Positions 4,761-41,902 of a DNA stretch of 64,000 nt are shown here, one piece after another; the stretch's first letter is position 1, and each line of letters starts with the position of its first letter. Source of the stretch: Oscillospiraceae bacterium (GTDB taxonomy: Bacteria > Bacillota > Clostridia > Oscillospirales > QAMX01); contig SVLQ01000001.1 in assembly GCA_015067825.1 (NCBI GenBank), forward strand, positions 396,485 through 460,484, written 5' to 3'. Both the position numbers and the translations under genes were made by a program. The notes below the pieces were generated by a model. The model did not search any database. It was given only the letters and a program-made list of their open reading frames with translations, and was not told the DNA's origin.

Positions 4761-7700
4761 TTACTCGTTAACAGTAACCTTTTTATCCTCATCGATCGTC
4801 ATCGTTTTACCGTCGAGGGCGAGAGTGGTGTACTCCTTGCCGTTGACGGTAACGATATTGCCGTTATCATAGAAAGTCTTGATTCTCCACTCGCCGGAGA
4901 AATCTTCATCGATGATGTTGCCAGATGTAGTCAAAGTGATTTTGGACTGGTAGTTATCGATCTCAATAGCCGCACAGTTTTGGTTGACGATAGCGCCAGC
5001 TGTGTCACCGGCAGAGGCATTAAAGGTGCAGCCGGTCACAGAGACTTTGTTATTGATCTGACCGCCGTCCTTATAAAGAAGAATCGCCTTACCAGCAGTA
5101 TTGAAAGTGCATCTGTTAAACTCAACTTCTAACGCACCATATACTTTGACATACTGGCCCTTGGCCAAATTAAAAGTACAATCATTGAACACGACTTTAT
5201 TACCGTACAGATTCATCATTCCATCGATAACACAGTCATTATAGGTTACAGTACCAACATGCTGAACACCGGTATAATCGCCGCTACCTTTAATAGTCAC
5301 TCCATTAAACTCCACAATACCAGTGTTGTTAAATGCAGGCTTGTTGATGGTAATAACCGTGGCTTTCGTGCCAGATATTTTTACCTCGGTAACCGTTTCG
5401 GTAGTCTGATTACCAGTACCGGCCAAAGTGTAGTCTCCAGCATTCAGTGTCACATCGGCCGCTTCGCCAGCTTTTATAGCGCTATTCAGAGAAGCCGAAG
5501 ATGAGACTACTTCTTTACCGTCGATGATAAGTACACCGGTCGTTCCGGGAACAAAGCGACCATAAATATTGGTATCAGTATTATAGTTGCCGGTCACGCC
5601 AGCATAGGAAACATCGTTGATAATGGTTTCACCAACATGGGCAGTGCCAACCGCGATACCGGTATGCGCCGCATCTTCACCGTTGATGGCAGTACCACTA
5701 ACGATCAAGCCCGTAATGGTGCTGGTGGTGTCAACGTTGCCGCCGGAATGGCCGATTGCCGCACCGACAGAGCCACCACCGGTGATAGAGCCGCCGGTCA
5801 CAGAGCAATCCTCAATGGTAATGTCGCTATAAACAGGGCCATCGTTTTGAACATTCCAACCAGCTGTATAACCCACGAATGCGGCTGCATACTTGGCACT
5901 CTCCACACTGCAGTTCTTCACATGGCAGTTCGTAATCGTAATAGCATCGCTGGTGTCGCCATCGCCAACAAACAACGCGCCATAGTTGGTCGTGGAAACA
6001 ACGGAGCAGTTCTCCAAAACAACACCGTCAAAGGTGTAGGCAGAGGAACCGCTATGGGCTACAAACAGTGCGCGTTCAGTGCTGTTCAGGTTGCTGATCG
6101 TGTTACCGTTACCGAGCATAGTGAAGGCCTTATTGCCCGTAACAGGAGTGATGGTCTTACCGGTCATGTCGATATCATTGGCGATATAAATGATATCTTT
6201 TGCTTGCAGATTGGCAAATGCAGCAACGAGTTCATCCGCCGTCTTAACAACAACAACATTCGTTCCTTCAAGCTTCTTGTCACCACCGGTAACCGTGACC
6301 AGATCGTAAGAAGCAGCAGCATCTTCGTCGACCCAAACTTCGAAAATGCTATCCGCGGCAACATCGCTGATATTGACTTCGGACAGAGTGATATCAGCAC
6401 CGGCAGCGCTCTTGACCAAAATTGCAGCCTTCTCTTCGGTCTTGAAGCCGGTACCGGATACGGTCAGAGTAACCTTCGCAGGAGCATCTACATACTGTTC
6501 ATCAATCTTAATGCCACGGCCGTCGGTAGCATCAGTCGTGTCGATGGTGCACTCGGTCAGAGTAACGGTTTGGCCTTCAGCAGTGATCCACAGACCATAA
6601 ACGTCAGAACGGCTAGTATCATTGATGGTAACCTTATTCATAGTGGTGGTCTTGCCGGCGTTATCCAGCGCGACAGACTTTTCAAAGGTCACCTTTTCAA
6701 TAACATAGTTACAGTTACTGAATCTGAGATCGTAAGCATTCCAAGTACCGGCGCTGTTACCGGTGCTGGTCATGATACCATTCTGAATGGTAATGGTAGC
6801 ATCATCGTTCTTTGCGCCAATTGCCGACCAATAAGTGGTGGTAATGTTCAGTTTCTTTTCATTCAGATCGATGATGATAGTCTCGGTTTCCTCGCCACCC
6901 AGCTTATACTCGCCGCTGCCGCCAGTAATAGTGCCCAGAGAAGAAATCGGCAGGTCGATATTATTCAGCAAGATAACGTGAATGTTTTCATCAGCAGCGG
7001 TCAGGGCTTTCGCCAGCTGATCAGCAGTCTCAACCTCGGTCACGCCGCAGTGCGGGCACTTTACGCCTGCAATATGCGCGTAGACAGGAACAAAATCATC
7101 GTTTTTGCTACTGCCGCAGGAACAGGTATAAGGAGTATAGCCTTGGGTGGTACAGGTGGGCTCAACAGGAGTTCCGGCAACCCACTCATGCGTATGCGCG
7201 ATCACGATGTAGCGCGTCCACTTGGCGAGGACGGTGACGTCGGATTCGATCGCCGCGTCGAAATCGAAGGCTTTGCCGTCGGCGGTGTACCAGCCCTTGA
7301 AGTCGTAGCCGTCGCGGGTCGGATCGGCGGGTTTTTCAACCGTTTCGCCGACTTCGACGGTGACTTCCGTCACCTTGCCGTCGGTGTAGTTTTCGTCAAA
7401 GGTCACCGTGACTTTATTGGCCGCGGGAACCACTTTTTCGCTGTAGCGATACAGGATCGCCGCGATCTGGCCGCGAGACGCGTCGGCCTCCGGCGAGAGC
7501 TTATCGGCAGCAGTGCCGTTGAACAGGCCAACGCCGACCGCCCAGTTCATCGCTTCAACCGCCCAACTGCTCACTTCGTCGGCATCGTTGAACTTGGCGA
7601 GGTTATCCTCGTCCGTCTCGACGTCCATGCCCTTGTAGACAGAGTAGCGGTAGAAGGTGACCGCGAGCTGTTCGCGGGTCATTTCGTCCGCCGGGCCCAT

Positions 7701-8051
7701 TTTACCGTCGCCGTAGCCTTTGATGATGCCGGCATCGGCAGCCCAAAGGATCGCGTCGGTGTACCACTGTCCTTCCGGAACGTCGGTGAAGGGGTTTTCG
7801 GCGTCGACGGCCGGTTCGCCTTCGAAACGCCAAAGAGTCGTCACGACCATGGCACGCGTTGTCGTGCCGGCGGGATCGAACTGATCGTTGCCGATACCGT
7901 TCATCAGGCCGTTTTCGCTGACGTAGGTAATTTCGTCATAGAACATATGCGTTGGCGGAACGTCGCCGTAGGTGTCTGTCGCAAACGCTGTGGGAACAAG
8001 CGACAGAAGCATGCAGAGCGTAAGAAGCGATGCAAGTATTCTTTTTCTCAT
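4761..8051 (-). CDS. Large secreted cell-surface protein: signal peptide, three SLH domains, Listeria-Bacteroides (Flg_new) repeat, Cys-rich linker, long beta-helix-like passenger
   Basis: Signal peptide MRKRILASLLTLCMLLSLVPTAFA. SLH-like repeats (FTDVPEGQWYTDAILWAADAGIIKGYGDG; FNDADEVSSWAVEAMNWAVGVGLFNG). DGYDFKGWYTADGKAFDF matches Flg_new. The C-terminal roughly 800 aa are rich in N/G/T/V with repeated xNCxV turns. RBS AAGAGGAAAAA. Confidence 0.85.
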   Translation of the reverse strand: MRKRILASLLTLCMLLSLVPTAFATDTYGDVPPTHMFYDEITYVSENGLMNGIGNDQFDPAGTTTRAMVVTTLWRFEGEPAVDAENPFTDVPEGQWYTDAILWAADAGIIKGYGDGKMGPADEMTREQLAVTFYRYSVYKGMDVETDEDNLAKFNDADEVSSWAVEAMNWAVGVGLFNGTAADKLSPEADASRGQIAAILYRYSEKVVPAANKVTVTFDENYTDGKVTEVTVEVGETVEKPADPTRDGYDFKGWYTADGKAFDFDAAIESDVTVLAKWTRYIVIAHTHEWVAGTPVEPTCTTQGYTPYTCSCGSSKNDDFVPVYAHIAGVKCPHCGVTEVETADQLAKALTAADENIHVILLNNIDLPISSLGTITGGSGEYKLGGEETETIIIDLNEKKLNITTTYWSAIGAKNDDATITIQNGIMTSTGNSAGTWNAYDLRFSNCNYVIEKVTFEKSVALDNAGKTTTMNKVTINDTSRSDVYGLWITAEGQTVTLTECTIDTTDATDGRGIKIDEQYVDAPAKVTLTVSGTGFKTEEKAAILVKSAAGADITLSEVNISDVAADSIFEVWVDEDAAASYDLVTVTGGDKKLEGTNVVVVKTADELVAAFANLQAKDIIYIANDIDMTGKTITPVTGNKAFTMLGNGNTISNLNSTERALFVAHSGSSAYTFDGVVLENCSVVSTTNYGALFVGDGDTSDAITITNCHVKNCSVESAKYAAAFVGYTAGWNVQNDGPVYSDITIEDCSVTGGSITGGGSVGAAIGHSGGNVDTTSTITGLIVSGTAINGEDAAHTGIAVGTAHVGETIINDVSYAGVTGNYNTDTNIYGRFVPGTTGVLIIDGKEVVSSSASLNSAIKAGEAADVTLNAGDYTLAGTGNQTTETVTEVKISGTKATVITINKPAFNNTGIVEFNGVTIKGSGDYTGVQHVGTVTYNDCVIDGMMNLYGNKVVFNDCTFNLAKGQYVKVYGALEVEFNRCTFNTAGKAILLYKDGGQINNKVSVTGCTFNASAGDTAGAIVNQNCAAIEIDNYQSKITLTTSGNIIDEDFSGEWRIKTFYDNGNIVTVNGKEYTTLALDGKTMTIDEDKKVTVNE

Positions 8052-8150: not shown

Positions 8151-8825
8151 TTATATGACGTCCAATGCTTTTCGATCGCCTGTTTCAAGGAGGTTCATCC
8201 TTAAAAGAAAGGCTCCGTAGACCTCTTCTTCTGCTCTCTGCCGCACTTTCACGGCATCTTCATACTTGTCGTAGGAGCCCAAATACATCAGTTTTCCCTG
8301 AAAGCGCAATCTCACATACCATTTGTTTTGCTTTTTGTGCCAATATACGCCTCGCGTTCCACTGGTGTTGGCAGCTGACGGACGCATATCACTGATTTTG
8401 GAAAGCTGCGTGCCTTCAACGAACCCCGCCGCCTGTACCATAGATTCAGCATTTGCACGGCGCAGACAATTGACACACATTCTCTCTTTTTTATCAGTCA
8501 GAGAGTCGCTGGAACGGTAAACTATCTCGCCGCATTCGCACCGACATTCCCATAGCAAGTTCGTGCGGCTGCCGCGTTTGCGTTTTTCGTCTGCTCGGCG
8601 CAGAACCGTCAGTTTTCCAAACACCTTGCCGGTCAAATCTGGCGATCTCCCGCAGCCGCAGCTCGTGATGTGGCCATTTTTCAGATTTCCGGTCGTTGCA
8701 ATATGCGTATTTCCGCAATCGCAAAGACACCCCCATCGTCTATGACCCTTGCTGTTGGAAGGCAGCAATTCCGTCACGACAAGCTTTCCAAATCTTTGTC
8801 CAATCAGATTCTCATACTCGCGCAT
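8151..8825 (-). CDS. AP2-domain DNA-binding protein with two N-terminal Cys-rich (Zn-ribbon-like) repeats
   Basis: C-terminal GVYWHKKQNKWYVRLRFQGKLMYLGSYDKYEDAVKVRQRAEEE fits the bacterial AP2 pattern. The N-terminus carries a duplicated module, FGKLxV...W.C.C.CG...C..C. Confidence 0.65.
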   Translation of the reverse strand: MREYENLIGQRFGKLVVTELLPSNSKGHRRWGCLCDCGNTHIATTGNLKNGHITSCGCGRSPDLTGKVFGKLTVLRRADEKRKRGSRTNLLWECRCECGEIVYRSSDSLTDKKERMCVNCLRRANAESMVQAAGFVEGTQLSKISDMRPSAANTSGTRGVYWHKKQNKWYVRLRFQGKLMYLGSYDKYEDAVKVRQRAEEEVYGAFLLRMNLLETGDRKALDVI

Positions 8826-8901
8826 TTATCTCTGATTCCCCCGGTAACAATCGTATACATCTTGACAGTCCCGATGAATTGTTTTCAAACTGTGCGTAAT
8901 G

Positions 8902-9023
8902 GTACACATTTTTACACTCTCTGTCAAAAGAATAACGAGCTTCTAAATACATACAAATATCATCTAATATTATATCTTATTCCCTTTAAAAATGCAAGAG
9001 AAAAAACGCGTAAAAATGTGTAC
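8902..9023. repeat. Perfect 14-bp inverted repeat pair bracketing a 94-bp AT-rich segment (candidate invertible element)
   Basis: GTACACATTTTTAC at 8902-8915 and its exact reverse complement GTAAAAATGTGTAC at 9010-9023. The line 8941-9000 has 13 G+C out of 60. Confidence 0.9.
8969..8997 (-). promoter_or_regulatory. Near-consensus sigma-A promoter lying wholly inside the IR-flanked segment, firing towards 8825
   Basis: The minus strand reads TTGCAT (8997-8992), a 17-nt spacer, then TATAAT (8974-8969). Confidence 0.55.
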
Positions 9024-9050
9024 TTTTTTTCCATTCTTTTCTCACCGCCG

Positions 9051-9659
9051 TTAAGAATGTGTGCACGTCCATTTTATAAAGGTATGGCTGGAGACACCGA
9101 GAATTTCGGCAGCTTTCCGAGCCGAGATTTCCCCCGCCTGCCATTTTGGATAAACCAGATCAAACGAACTCGGAACCGGAAGCGGCAGACGTCCAAAACG
9201 CACACCGCGCGCTTTGGCAGCGGCAATCCCCTCGGCTTGTCGCTGCCGGATAAATTCCCGCTCTGTTTGCGCCACATAGCTTAAAAGCTGCAGCACGATA
9301 TCGGCAATGAGCGTACCCGTCAGATCTCTGCCTTGGCGTGTATCGAGCAGCGGCATATCCAAAACAACGATTGCGGCGTTTTTCTCCCGCGTGATCATGC
9401 GCCATTGCTCTAAAATCTCGTTGTAGTTTCGTCCGAGTCGATCAATGCTTTTTACCACAAGGGTATCTCCGGGCTTTAGCTTGCGCAGCAGTTGTTGGTA
9501 TCCCGGACGGTCGAAATCTTTGCCGGACTGTTTGTCCATATAGATTCGATCCTCCTCTACGCCAAATTCCCGCATCGCCGTACGCTGTCGGTCTTCGTTT
9601 TGATCTCTCGTGGATACGCGGACATATCCATACATTTTTCCTGCTTCCTGCATGGTCAT
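9051..9659 (-). CDS. Small serine recombinase (resolvase/invertase family)
   Basis: MYGYVRVSTRDQNEDRQ catalytic-Ser motif, DRLGRN, and a C-terminal HTH (ISARKAAEILGVSSHTFIKW). About 200 aa. The true start is probably the ATG at 9653 (GGAGG 7 nt upstream) or the MYGY methionine. Confidence 0.9.
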   Translation of the reverse strand: MTMQEAGKMYGYVRVSTRDQNEDRQRTAMREFGVEEDRIYMDKQSGKDFDRPGYQQLLRKLKPGDTLVVKSIDRLGRNYNEILEQWRMITREKNAAIVVLDMPLLDTRQGRDLTGTLIADIVLQLLSYVAQTEREFIRQRQAEGIAAAKARGVRFGRLPLPVPSSFDLVYPKWQAGEISARKAAEILGVSSHTFIKWTCTHS

Positions 9660-9721
9660 TCCTCCTTATCATTCCCAGTGTTGATGCCAGCGGCTGTCAT
9701 AATTTTATCATGAGCCGTAGG

Positions 9722-9768
9722 AGCAAAATAATGCCCCCGAAGGATTACAATATCCTTCGGGGGCATTT
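9722..9768 (-). terminator. Terminator downstream of the beta-helix gene
   Basis: 16-nt arms AATGCCCCCGAAGGAT (9730-9745) and ATCCTTCGGGGGCATT (9752-9767). The minus strand continues ATTATTTTG. Confidence 0.7.
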
Positions 9769-22510: not shown

Positions 22511-22730
22511 TTCACAAATGCATATCGTGAAATATTTTGCTTTGCAAAATGTGAAATCATGTTCTGTCGAACATTGTGAAATATCTCGCTCTGCTCGATG
22601 TGAAATGAAATAAATCCCCTCACGCCCGCAGGCATTTCACTCGCTGAAAGCGAATTTCACGCACAAAGTGCATTTCACAAATCCCGTAAGGGATTTATTT
22701 CGTTGCGCAGTGTCCTTTAGGACACTGCGC
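22511..22730. repeat. Heptamer/hairpin array: GTGAAAT four times forward, ATTTCAC three times reverse, interleaved with short perfect palindromes
   Basis: GTGAAAT starts at 22527, 22551, 22576 and 22600. ATTTCAC starts at 22634, 22654 and 22672. TTCACA is at 22511. The spacer palindromes are listed in the findings. Confidence 0.85.
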
Positions 22731-40856: not shown

Positions 40857-40889
40857 GAAAAAGGATTTAATCGCCACCATTATAAAAAT

Positions 40890-40954
40890 AAAACTATAAA
40901 TCGGCACTTATTATCTGTTTTATATGGATAATAGGTGCCGATTTATAGTTTTTT
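40890..40954 (+). terminator. Very long hairpin/terminator at the GC-to-AT junction
   Basis: 26-nt arms at 40890-40915 and 40927-40952 (one mismatch), 11-nt loop, followed by TTTT. Confidence 0.8.
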
Positions 40955-41020
40955 ATTTAACCATGTTTTAAGTTTTTTATATATATGTATGTATCTATGT
41001 AAATATAATTTCTGTATATA

Positions 41021-41140: not shown

Positions 41141-41902
41141 ATGAAAATACATAAAGTGAAAGTTTCTGTATGTATTATCAGCATTCTTTTCTCTATCCTA
41201 GGCACCTCTTCTATCTCATTCGCAGATTGTACGTTACCGCCGCAGGTTACTGTTGAGGCAATGGGTGAAGACATCTATCAGATGATTGATGATTATGAAT
41301 CCGGAATTTATAAGGCAACTATTGAGGATCCGAATTTTAATGCCAAAGCACTTTTTTCGGAACCGGCGAATTCCTCCAATGATCTAATCAAAGAGGATAT
41401 TTATCAAGTTAAATGTTTAGATGCACAAAACAATACATATGAGGCCACCTGTATTTCTAAATATTCCACCCGTTCGCTCGGATTAGAGAGAGAAGAACAG
41501 GCTGAACACAAAAACGTATACATTATGGTACGCATTGTGTATAACACGATTTCAATTACGAGCGGTGGCGGTTCCTTCACAGCATACAATATTACAACGG
41601 TGAAAGGAGGCGTTGTGCGGACCACCAATTTACATGTTGTTTCTCATGTTAAGCTAAGTAGCACAGGTAATGGGCAAGCCTATGACGCATCAGGTAACCG
41701 TGTCGGTATCAAACGCGAGGGAACTAGTCAAATGATTACATATCTTCCCGTTACAGGTCAGGTTTATAGTATTCCTTCCGAAATCAACTATTATTACATC
41801 CCTGGTTCAGGCGGCGGTACAGGCGGTATAAACGAGTGCCGAATCATCGGGGCTCATACGTCTTACGAGTACCTTTTAGAGGCCTCGGCAGGATGGGTTT
41901 AA
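41141..41902 (+). CDS. Secreted hypothetical protein (253 aa)
   Basis: Sec-type signal MKIHKVKVSVCIISILFSILGTSSISFA. RBS GGGAGGG. I recognise no family motif. Low GC (21 of 60 in line 41161-41220). Confidence 0.7.
   Translation: MKIHKVKVSVCIISILFSILGTSSISFADCTLPPQVTVEAMGEDIYQMIDDYESGIYKATIEDPNFNAKALFSEPANSSNDLIKEDIYQVKCLDAQNNTYEATCISKYSTRSLGLEREEQAEHKNVYIMVRIVYNTISITSGGGSFTAYNITTVKGGVVRTTNLHVVSHVKLSSTGNGQAYDASGNRVGIKREGTSQMITYLPVTGQVYSIPSEINYYYIPGSGGGTGGINECRIIGAHTSYEYLLEASAGWV

Follow-up and report, generated by a model that had tools for sequence, protein, structure and literature searches.

Introduction

Serine-recombinase inversion systems of the Hin and Gin type operate on segments of 1-4 kb, that of Hin containing the recombinase gene itself, and they require a Fis-bound enhancer together with supercoiling; the hix site at which Hin acts has the sequence AAAACC/AA/GGTTTT and Firmicutes are not known to have Fis. 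In the capsule loci of Bacteroides fragilis, the first genes past the invertible promoters encode the regulators UpxY and UpxZ, and the serine invertase Mpi reportedly serves about 13 loci in trans, their segments measuring about 170-230 bp. The Sin and beta recombinases of Firmicutes plasmids need an HU-type bending protein to form their synapse, and beta recombinase can also invert DNA. Switch segments of Clostridioides difficile span about 150-200 bp, and cwpV is controlled through a terminator switch and not by promoter inversion. The present work concerns a 94-bp invertible segment that carries a predicted promoter and lies beside the gene of a serine recombinase of 200 amino acids (aa), in a 64,000-nucleotide stretch of the genome of an Oscillospiraceae bacterium (assembly GCA_015067825.1, contig SVLQ01000001.1, positions 396,485 to 460,484 of the forward strand), the whole of which is referred to here as the window.

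Among Clostridia, switches with short invertible segments before surface or motility genes have been described in C. difficile, where cwpV and flgB are switched via RecV (PMC2784873, PMC5386303), and inverton group 139 of hCom2 combines a tyrosine recombinase with segments of about 200-230 bp (PMC11892184). The inverton studies consulted deal mainly with Bacteroides, and the Clostridia invertons reported in them have been linked to tyrosine recombinases. A literature search returned no description of the serine-recombinase class considered here or of the quantised site spacing reported below, and individual members may already have been catalogued.

Inversion of the 94-bp segment

The segment occupies positions 8916-9009 of the window and is bracketed by a perfect 14-bp inverted repeat, with the left arm, GTACACATTTTTAC, at 8902-8915 on the plus strand and the right arm, its reverse complement, at 9010-9023 on the minus strand. 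Both arms and the 94-bp spacer are located as in the first-pass annotation of the window, which had proposed an invertible promoter cassette at this place from the letters of the sequence, and its estimate of about 22% GC for the spacer is replaced by a measured 27.7%. In the whole 64 kb GTACACATTTTTAC occurs in just two copies, even when up to two mismatches are allowed (mean of 0.17 in shuffled sequence), and first-order Markov simulation yields 0.1 perfect 14-bp inverted repeats with a gap of 10-200 bp per window; the remaining 14-bp inverted repeats that the window really contains are terminator-type hairpins with short loops.

Same-species contigs were gathered from public assemblies by exact look-up of three proteins, namely the recombinase, the AP2/Zn-ribbon protein encoded on the other side of the segment and the 479-aa protein encoded upstream of the recombinase. 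This returned 13 distinct contigs, some of them labelled as goat or other herbivore gut, with the gene order ABC transporter, 479-aa gene, recombinase, AP2 gene and SLH surface-protein gene in every one. The segment has the orientation of the window in 11 of the 13, and it is exactly reverse-complemented between the repeats, on unchanged flanks, in the two others, L010 (ENA ERZ28653715 scaffold_31429) and L202 (ENA ERZ28018977 k141_686605). When positions 8916-9009 are flipped in silico, the window equals L010 across 422 bp with one distant single-nucleotide polymorphism (SNP), blastn returns a 122-bp minus-strand piece at 100% identity between window and flipped contig, and the junctions of the inversion coincide exactly with the 14-bp repeats. 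As suggested by record names such as k141, the assemblies were made with k-mers of more than 14 bases, in which case a 14-bp repeat should not be able to yield this inversion as an assembly artefact. An exact-pattern search (flank plus repeat) of a metagenome contig collection that evidently lacks these samples gave no matches. We regard it as close to certain that inversion occurs at these repeats.

The flipped contigs also bear on an explanation that involves no inversion at all, in which the repeats serve as an operator pair, as the first-pass annotation had allowed, or as an RNA or DNA hairpin, and in this way regulate the AP2 gene or the recombinase. Such a role would suit the fact that each repeat arm overlaps promoter-like sequence. 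On the other hand, two assemblies contain the segment in exactly inverted form and related modules are inverted too, a loop of 94 nt is not terminator-like, and an Rfam search gave no matches for the locus. The observed inversions exclude the simple operator pair, and this whole line of explanation is considered extremely improbable.

The recombinase and its probable crossover sites

The recombinase gene (9051-9653, minus strand) encodes a small serine recombinase of 200 aa that matches the Pfam Resolvase family PF00239 (9e-34) over residues 10-153 and PHROG 125, annotated as 'DNA invertase' (1e-56), and its stop codon lies 27 bp from the right repeat, all in agreement with the enzyme type, size and distance originally assigned to it. 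Its closest solved structures are Sin/Bin3 (3e-29), gamma-delta resolvase (6e-23) and Gin (2e-19); the motifs YVRVSTRDQ and DRLGRN align to both Sin and gamma-delta resolvase, with YVRVSTRDQ aligned to the nucleophile serine of Sin. The probable start is the ATG at 9653, which has AAGGAGG 7 nt upstream and with which public gene calls concur; the alternative ATG at 9659 would give a 202-aa form that is absent from public records, in which the 200-aa form is present. Membership of the Mpi family (NCBIfam NF009949) was considered and rejected, the protein scoring 54.7 bits against a cut-off of 272. Upstream, the 479-aa gene ends in an intrinsic terminator (9730-9767, minus strand; a perfect 16-bp stem followed by a T-rich tail), which sets the recombinase transcription unit apart from that gene, and a candidate extended -10 element of the recombinase gene, TGATAAAAT (9702-9710, minus strand), is located between this terminator and the recombinase ribosome-binding site. 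This recombinase would be the enzyme that catalyses the inversion, a reading based on its adjacency and on its conservation together with a pair of sites, which were found at 43 of 157 loci as compared with 1 of 1210 control windows.

Taken together with their flanking bases, the repeats form dyad-symmetric sites with the consensus AAARGT/NN/ACYTTT, of which each 14-bp repeat makes up the inner part, and the earlier remark that the repeats are not dyad-symmetric does not hold once these bases and a 2-bp core are included. The recombinase-proximal site reads AAAAGT/AC/ACATTT (9014-9027, central dinucleotide 9020-9021) and the distal site AAATGT/GT/ACCATT (8898-8911, central dinucleotide 8904-8905), both on the recombinase-sense strand, with scores of 15/16 and 14/16, respectively, against a palindromic site model. 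Their cores, AC and GT, are complementary and non-palindromic, as inverted site orientation requires, and the two crossover centres lie 116 bp apart, or about 11 helical turns. By their sequence, with dyad symmetry and a non-palindromic 2-bp core, these sites are built like the crossover sites of serine recombinases, and cleavage presumably takes place at the core.

Two further sequences near the sites were noted. A third pseudo-site, AGATGT/AT/ACGATT, about 49 bp past the distal site, was set aside, its core not matching. A degenerate 30-nt inverted repeat (9033-9062 versus 8904-8933), whose arms are 70% complementary, extends over the stop codon of the recombinase gene and over the left repeat arm, and in score it falls short of the site model.

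Related modules in Clostridia

Thousands of relatives of this recombinase, of about 200 aa and 63-81% identity, are present in Clostridia, the whole family numbering roughly 8000 or more, and isolates with such a module include Lactonifactor longoviformis DSM 17459 and Cuneatibacter sp. NSJ-177. Two relatives present on many contigs were examined, and for both of them the adjacent module was recovered in both orientations. In the P0096 module (recombinase 77% identical; contigs L111-L120), the segment lies between AAAAAGTACAGGTTA and TAACCTGTACTTT, and seven contigs show one orientation and three the other. In the P0038 module (recombinase 75% identical; contigs L101-L110), three contigs (L105, L107 and L109) are inverted between the outermost sites, A and C. 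The flanks of both modules carry 0 mismatches in 600+600 bp between orientations, and the presence of both orientations on identical flanks indicates that active switching is a property of this recombinase family. Together with the exact 94-bp inversions in two independent assemblies of the species, the two orientations of these related modules bear out the inverton reading from which the analysis set out.

The two modules also have peculiarities of their own. The P0096 recombinase open reading frame (ORF) runs through the proximal site and has its stop inside the segment, as TAG or TAA depending on orientation, and its cargo genes encode, in this order, a protein of 195 aa and a non-ribosomal peptide synthetase of 2738 aa. 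The P0038 switch, located about 20-175 bp past the recombinase stop, comprises three sites, one forward and two reverse (120 and 153 bp), which makes more than two states possible; its contigs also vary after the -10 element, where TATAAT is followed by TTAAT, ATAAT, nothing or TACAT, and then by TACAG.

In a strict scan for such modules, both sites had to score at least 12/16, the cores had to be complementary, the inner halves had to be inverted repeats and the first site had to lie no more than 160 bp from the recombinase stop. Positives were obtained at 25 of 82 loci of species-representative genomes and 18 of 75 metagenome loci, as compared with 1 of 1210 control windows taken from the same loci, and the scan yielded 42 non-identical modules with sites at the 3' end of the recombinase gene. 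The proximal site usually falls between -44 and +73 bp relative to the recombinase stop codon, and the complementary core pairs AC/GT, AG/CT and GT/AC recur, with TT/AA at one locus.

Helical phasing of the sites

Across the 42 modules, the distance between crossover centres takes the values 77 bp, 93-95 bp (five modules), 105 and 107 bp, 114-117 bp (14 modules), 125-128 bp (nine modules) and 134-137 bp (four modules), with further single distances of 146, 149, 153, 161, 176, 177 and 218 bp. The caveat that 94 bp is short for a serine-invertase synapse is answered by these relatives, which hold 93-137 bp between centres. The distances fall on a lattice with a period of about 10.5 bp and no offset, at 9, 10, 11, 12, 13 and 14 turns (95, 105, 116, 126, 137 and 147 bp), and the module of the window stands at 116 bp. 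Two family members on predicted viral contigs likewise have lattice spacings, of 95 and 137 bp.

The Rayleigh statistic for the 42 modules is R=0.71, a value reached by none of 20,000 sets jittered by +/-5 bp (p<5e-5). Because most distances cover only about four periods, the Rayleigh statistic cannot pin the period (R remains high from 9.25 to 11.25 bp), and the jitter null and a lattice fit were used in its place: 81-83% of the distances of 90-150 bp are within 1.5 bp of a 10.3-10.6-bp lattice, where 29% would be expected. When modules sharing more than 65% interior identity are merged, the phasing persists in the resulting 38 clusters (R=0.73, p ~2e-4); apart from such cases, equally long interiors are only about 59% identical, and the occurrence of several length classes inside each core type argues that spacing is a constraint and not simply inherited. 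The interiors themselves show an AA/TT periodicity of 10.5-11.5 bp that is 2.5 times that of matched AT-rich controls (Mann-Whitney p=5e-5), and the module of the window ranks 8th of the 42 in this regard. Phased spacing and AA/TT periodicity point to a synapsis that may proceed via a tight, correctly phased and probably pre-bent loop.

Predicted promoters and downstream genes

A predicted promoter, P1 (8969-8997, minus strand), lies wholly within the segment and consists of TTGCAT (8997-8992), a 17-nt spacer and TATAAT (8974-8969); in the window orientation it aims at the AP2 gene, and its -35 element begins 22-23 nt from the crossover centre. Transcription from P1 is predicted to start near 8962, which would give a 5' untranslated region of about 137 nt up to the start of the AP2 gene at 8825. 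A second promoter-like site, P2 (8899-8927, minus strand; TTGACA at 8927-8922, 17 nt, TACCAT at 8904-8899), scored 10/12 in a consensus scan and exists in the window orientation only, with its -35 inside the segment and its -10 at the repeat boundary; since this -10 falls on the outer half-site, P2 may have arisen incidentally from the sequence of the crossover site itself; if used, it would start transcription near 8892. After the flip, the top-scoring promoter candidate directed at the AP2 gene reaches only 8/12. On these predictions, the window orientation is read as the ON state of the switch.

The position of P1 is shared by relatives. In at least 19 of the 42 modules the best sigma-A-like promoter begins 21-23 nt from one crossover centre, typically as TTGCAT, TTGCAA or TTGACA, 17 nt and TATAAT, which is also the offset of P1. 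Among the species' reference assemblies, about one third have the promoter directed at the cargo and about two thirds at the recombinase, a mixture that is as expected of an invertible element.

The product of the first gene after the switch (8151-8825, minus strand) is the AP2/Zn-ribbon protein of 224 aa, in which two Cys-rich repeats of Zn-ribbon type precede an AP2-like domain at the C-terminus. Its match to Pfam AP2 (PF00847; 3.6e-4) reaches 21.2 bits and thus stays under the curated gathering threshold of 33.3, which some homologues pass, and Cys clusters are invariant across the family (C33/C35/C37...C56/C58 and C94/C96/C98...C117/C120). PHROG 374 and 99, annotated as 'HNH endonuclease', match the protein in its DNA-binding parts only, Pfam and PHROG profile searches found no nuclease domain in it, and PADLOC gave no match. 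An AlphaFold model (predicted local distance difference test, pLDDT, 81) has a beta-beta-beta-alpha arrangement at residues 160-215, and the best PDB match in a Foldseek search is the AP2 factor WRINKLED1 (E=0.015, probability 0.93), a weak match with a low template-modelling score (TM-score) that can be attributed to the flexible linkage of the three domains. The protein is most likely a DNA-binding protein, and a regulatory role can be conjectured. At least 1289 homologues of this family are present in Clostridia, and a homologue is again the first gene past the switch in L015 and L038, preceding in the latter a TagF/IspD/epimerase operon of teichoic-acid type. A general tie of the family to invertons was considered and rejected, homologues (L213-L224) also being encoded at the end of a type IV pilus-like operon and immediately behind a tyrosine integrase gene, with no inverted repeats in either setting.

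A gap of 99 bp separates the AP2 gene from the gene of a 1096-aa SLH-anchored surface protein (4761-8051, minus strand; three SLH domains, 1e-29, and Flg_new, 7e-16). Neither an intrinsic terminator nor a consensus promoter was found in this gap, and the SLH gene is probably part of the same predicted transcription unit as the AP2 gene; we lean slightly towards the view that the surface protein is co-regulated by the switch.

The surface protein differs among close relatives. Contig L098 (NCBI GCA_017396245.1, JAFQMJ010000038.1) has the recombinase, the switch and the AP2 protein as in the window at the protein level. Its DNA identity of about 99% to window positions 7184-8051 breaks off within the SLH gene near codon 289, after which a different protein of 1315 aa with LRR_5 repeats follows; the SLH anchor is thus kept and the exposed part exchanged between these strains. 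In L005 (JGI 3300018878) an A5-to-A4 deletion at about 7332 splits the SLH gene into three ORFs, and four clustered SNPs occur at 5668-5701; these changes could be natural loss of function or slippage, or else an assembly error.

The other modules carry SpaA-type pilins, SLH and LRR proteins, EcoRI-like and Eco57I-like methyltransferases, a non-ribosomal peptide synthetase, HA-domain helicases resembling type IV restriction enzymes, and Zn-finger proteins (DUF4379, HNH_repeat). The cargo of the relatives is the usual phase-variable repertoire of surface and defence genes.

Proposed mechanism and alternative explanations

In the mechanism proposed here, dimers of the 200-aa recombinase would bind two dyad-symmetric sites of about 14-26 bp, centred at 9020/9021 and 8904/8905, and come together by closing a tight loop of 116 bp; at about 11 whole turns both sites would lie on the same face of the helix. 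The strands would be cut at the core dinucleotides and, after a 180-degree rotation of half the tetramer, religated with the 94-bp segment flipped. HU-type bending proteins may help to close this loop, and if the inner half-sites can rotate with the loop as one body, as subunit rotation would suggest, the small size of the loop would hinder synapsis only and not strand exchange. In the ON state, transcription from P1 would cross the distal site, enter the AP2/Zn-ribbon gene and probably continue into the SLH gene; in the OFF state P1 would be directed, in antisense, at the recombinase gene from its 3' end, with no comparable promoter facing the AP2 gene. This antisense reading would offer a possible feedback on the recombinase.

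The antisense arrangement can also be accommodated by another account, in which the recombinase belongs to a self-regulating or mobile cassette with a res-like site or antisense control of the enzyme, and any effect on the AP2 and SLH genes is incidental. The closest solved relatives are indeed resolvases, Sin and gamma-delta, members of the family occur on predicted viral contigs, and the module is found before unrelated cargo. Nevertheless, inverted sites with complementary asymmetric cores give inversion and not resolution, the promoter has a fixed offset and faces the downstream gene in one third of the species, the cargo is of a phase-variable kind, and no transposase or second resolution site was found near the locus. 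This account is judged very unlikely, and an ON/OFF switch of the downstream genes is preferred to it.

Several observations nonetheless weigh against such a switch at this locus. Both flipped contigs belong to one sub-lineage, which is 98.6-98.9% identical to the window and carries the recombinase substitutions N19H and P101Q, so that here the two states are documented between lineages and not within one clone. Some samples may be represented by more than one assembly among the ENA and JGI contigs, and the ratio of 11:2 does not stand for 13 independent observations. The -35 element of P1 equals TTGACA at just 3/6 positions, which explains its absence from the consensus scan list; what had been called a near-consensus sigma-A promoter is present and lies entirely in the segment, and the description as near-consensus fails for its -35. 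Just about 30% of the related recombinase loci pass the strict site-pair scan, and the 23-bp spacing of the promoter hexamers may partly account for the AA/TT periodicity. The original statement that the SLH gene has no obvious promoter of its own holds as far as the 99-bp gap and consensus promoters are concerned; by eye, a weak candidate, CTGAAT-18-TAAAAT, can be recognised in that gap, and the SLH gene could have its own promoter.

The distribution over lineages would also be expected from a fossil inversion, that is, from one flip in the ancestor of the sub-lineage, each lineage now being fixed, for example through a recombinase that has lost its activity or works very slowly; the ON state is found in all 11 window-type contigs and the OFF state in both N19H/P101Q contigs. 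However, the recombinase is intact and conserved with its catalytic motif present, the repeats have remained perfect, switching occurs in close relatives with identical backgrounds, and consensus assemblies give the majority state only, so that a biased or slow switch would look alike. A fossil inversion is therefore held to be unlikely, although less so than the other alternatives, and the full ON/OFF inversion switch, as outlined above, is considered quite probable.

Other features of the window

Two further non-coding features were recorded elsewhere in the window. An intergenic GTGAAAT array at 22521-22700 contains four direct copies about 20 bp apart followed by three inverted ones (ATTTCAC), and one arm of a 12-bp inverted repeat, GAAATAAATCCC and GGGATTTATTTC, lies within this array and the other just past it; the arrangement resembles a binding region with several regulator sites, or else a small structured element. 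At 40880-40955, a long AT-rich hairpin, in which arms that match perfectly over about 20 bp enclose about 23 nt, is followed by a T run and is probably a bidirectional terminator; after it comes a very AT-rich region (39% GC) that contains promoter-like sequence and a small gene, which begins at 41141.

Significance and comparison with known systems

At a wider scale, it can be put forward tentatively, at slightly below even confidence, that the locus belongs to a large 'mini-inverton' class of gut Clostridia and their prophages, a portable cassette in which synapsis would proceed by an enhancer-free loop below one persistence length. With the same reservation, such a cassette would consist of the gene of a Sin-like 200-aa invertase, a site that lies at the stop codon of this gene or overlaps it, a promoter 21-23 nt from one of the crossover centres and a second site exactly 9-14 turns away. 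If this is true, the class would offer the smallest natural substrate for serine-recombinase inversion, with a mechanistically distinct invertasome assembly, and its OFF-state promoter would feed back on the recombinase by antisense transcription.

For the host, an uncultured bacterium of Oscillospiraceae/Ruminococcaceae type, the switch would make a DNA-binding protein, and probably an SLH surface protein as well, phase-variable, and such heterogeneity is of the kind that shapes phage sensitivity, adhesion and immune recognition. The features described here also amount to a signature by which switches in Clostridia may be recognised from sequence, namely a recombinase 3' end, an AAARGT/NN/ACYTTT pair, a spacing of n x 10.5 bp and a fixed-offset promoter. 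Spacings of 9-14 turns open a long-standing question, that of how inversion is chosen and synapsis achieved without Fis and an enhancer, to a minimal substrate of about 150 bp, and compact one-gene switches of this type are attractive for synthetic memory circuits in Gram-positive hosts.

The enzyme and its sites have much in common with Hin/hix, Gin/gix, Cin and Pin, which likewise combine a serine recombinase of about 190-200 aa and a C-terminal helix-turn-helix with dyad-symmetric A-tract half-sites and a 2-bp asymmetric core, and, as with Hin, an outward promoter within the segment would provide ON/OFF control. Unlike in the Hin/Gin type, the segment measures 94 bp (116 bp from centre to centre) and the recombinase gene lies outside it; no Fis-type enhancer is evident at the locus, where no search was aimed at enhancers, and the recombinase is nearer to Sin (3e-29) than to Gin (2e-19). 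The Mpi and capsule invertons of B. fragilis resemble the locus in their serine invertase, their short promoter-only segments with inverted repeats and their association with surface structures, and, as in the capsule loci, the gene of a DNA-binding protein comes first after the promoter. In contrast to Mpi, each recombinase described here stands beside one segment of 93-137 bp, and the protein encoded in the window lies outside the Mpi family.

The Sin and beta recombinases of Firmicutes plasmids share with the present enzyme their Firmicutes origin, and Sin is its best solved-structure match; their HU-type bending is, by analogy, a plausible precedent for the closure of a tight loop. Those enzymes, however, resolve, acting on multi-subsite res or six sites of about 90 bp in direct repeat upstream of their genes, whereas here two simple inverted sites at the recombinase 3' end surround a promoter. 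The C. difficile and group 139 invertons differ from the locus in their enzyme class, that of the tyrosine recombinases, and in their larger segments. The switch logic is that of the classical invertons Hin/H2, fimS and the Bacteroides capsule promoters. In conclusion, the locus taken alone is of a familiar kind, while the family to which it belongs forms a variant of its own, very compact and with helically phased sites.

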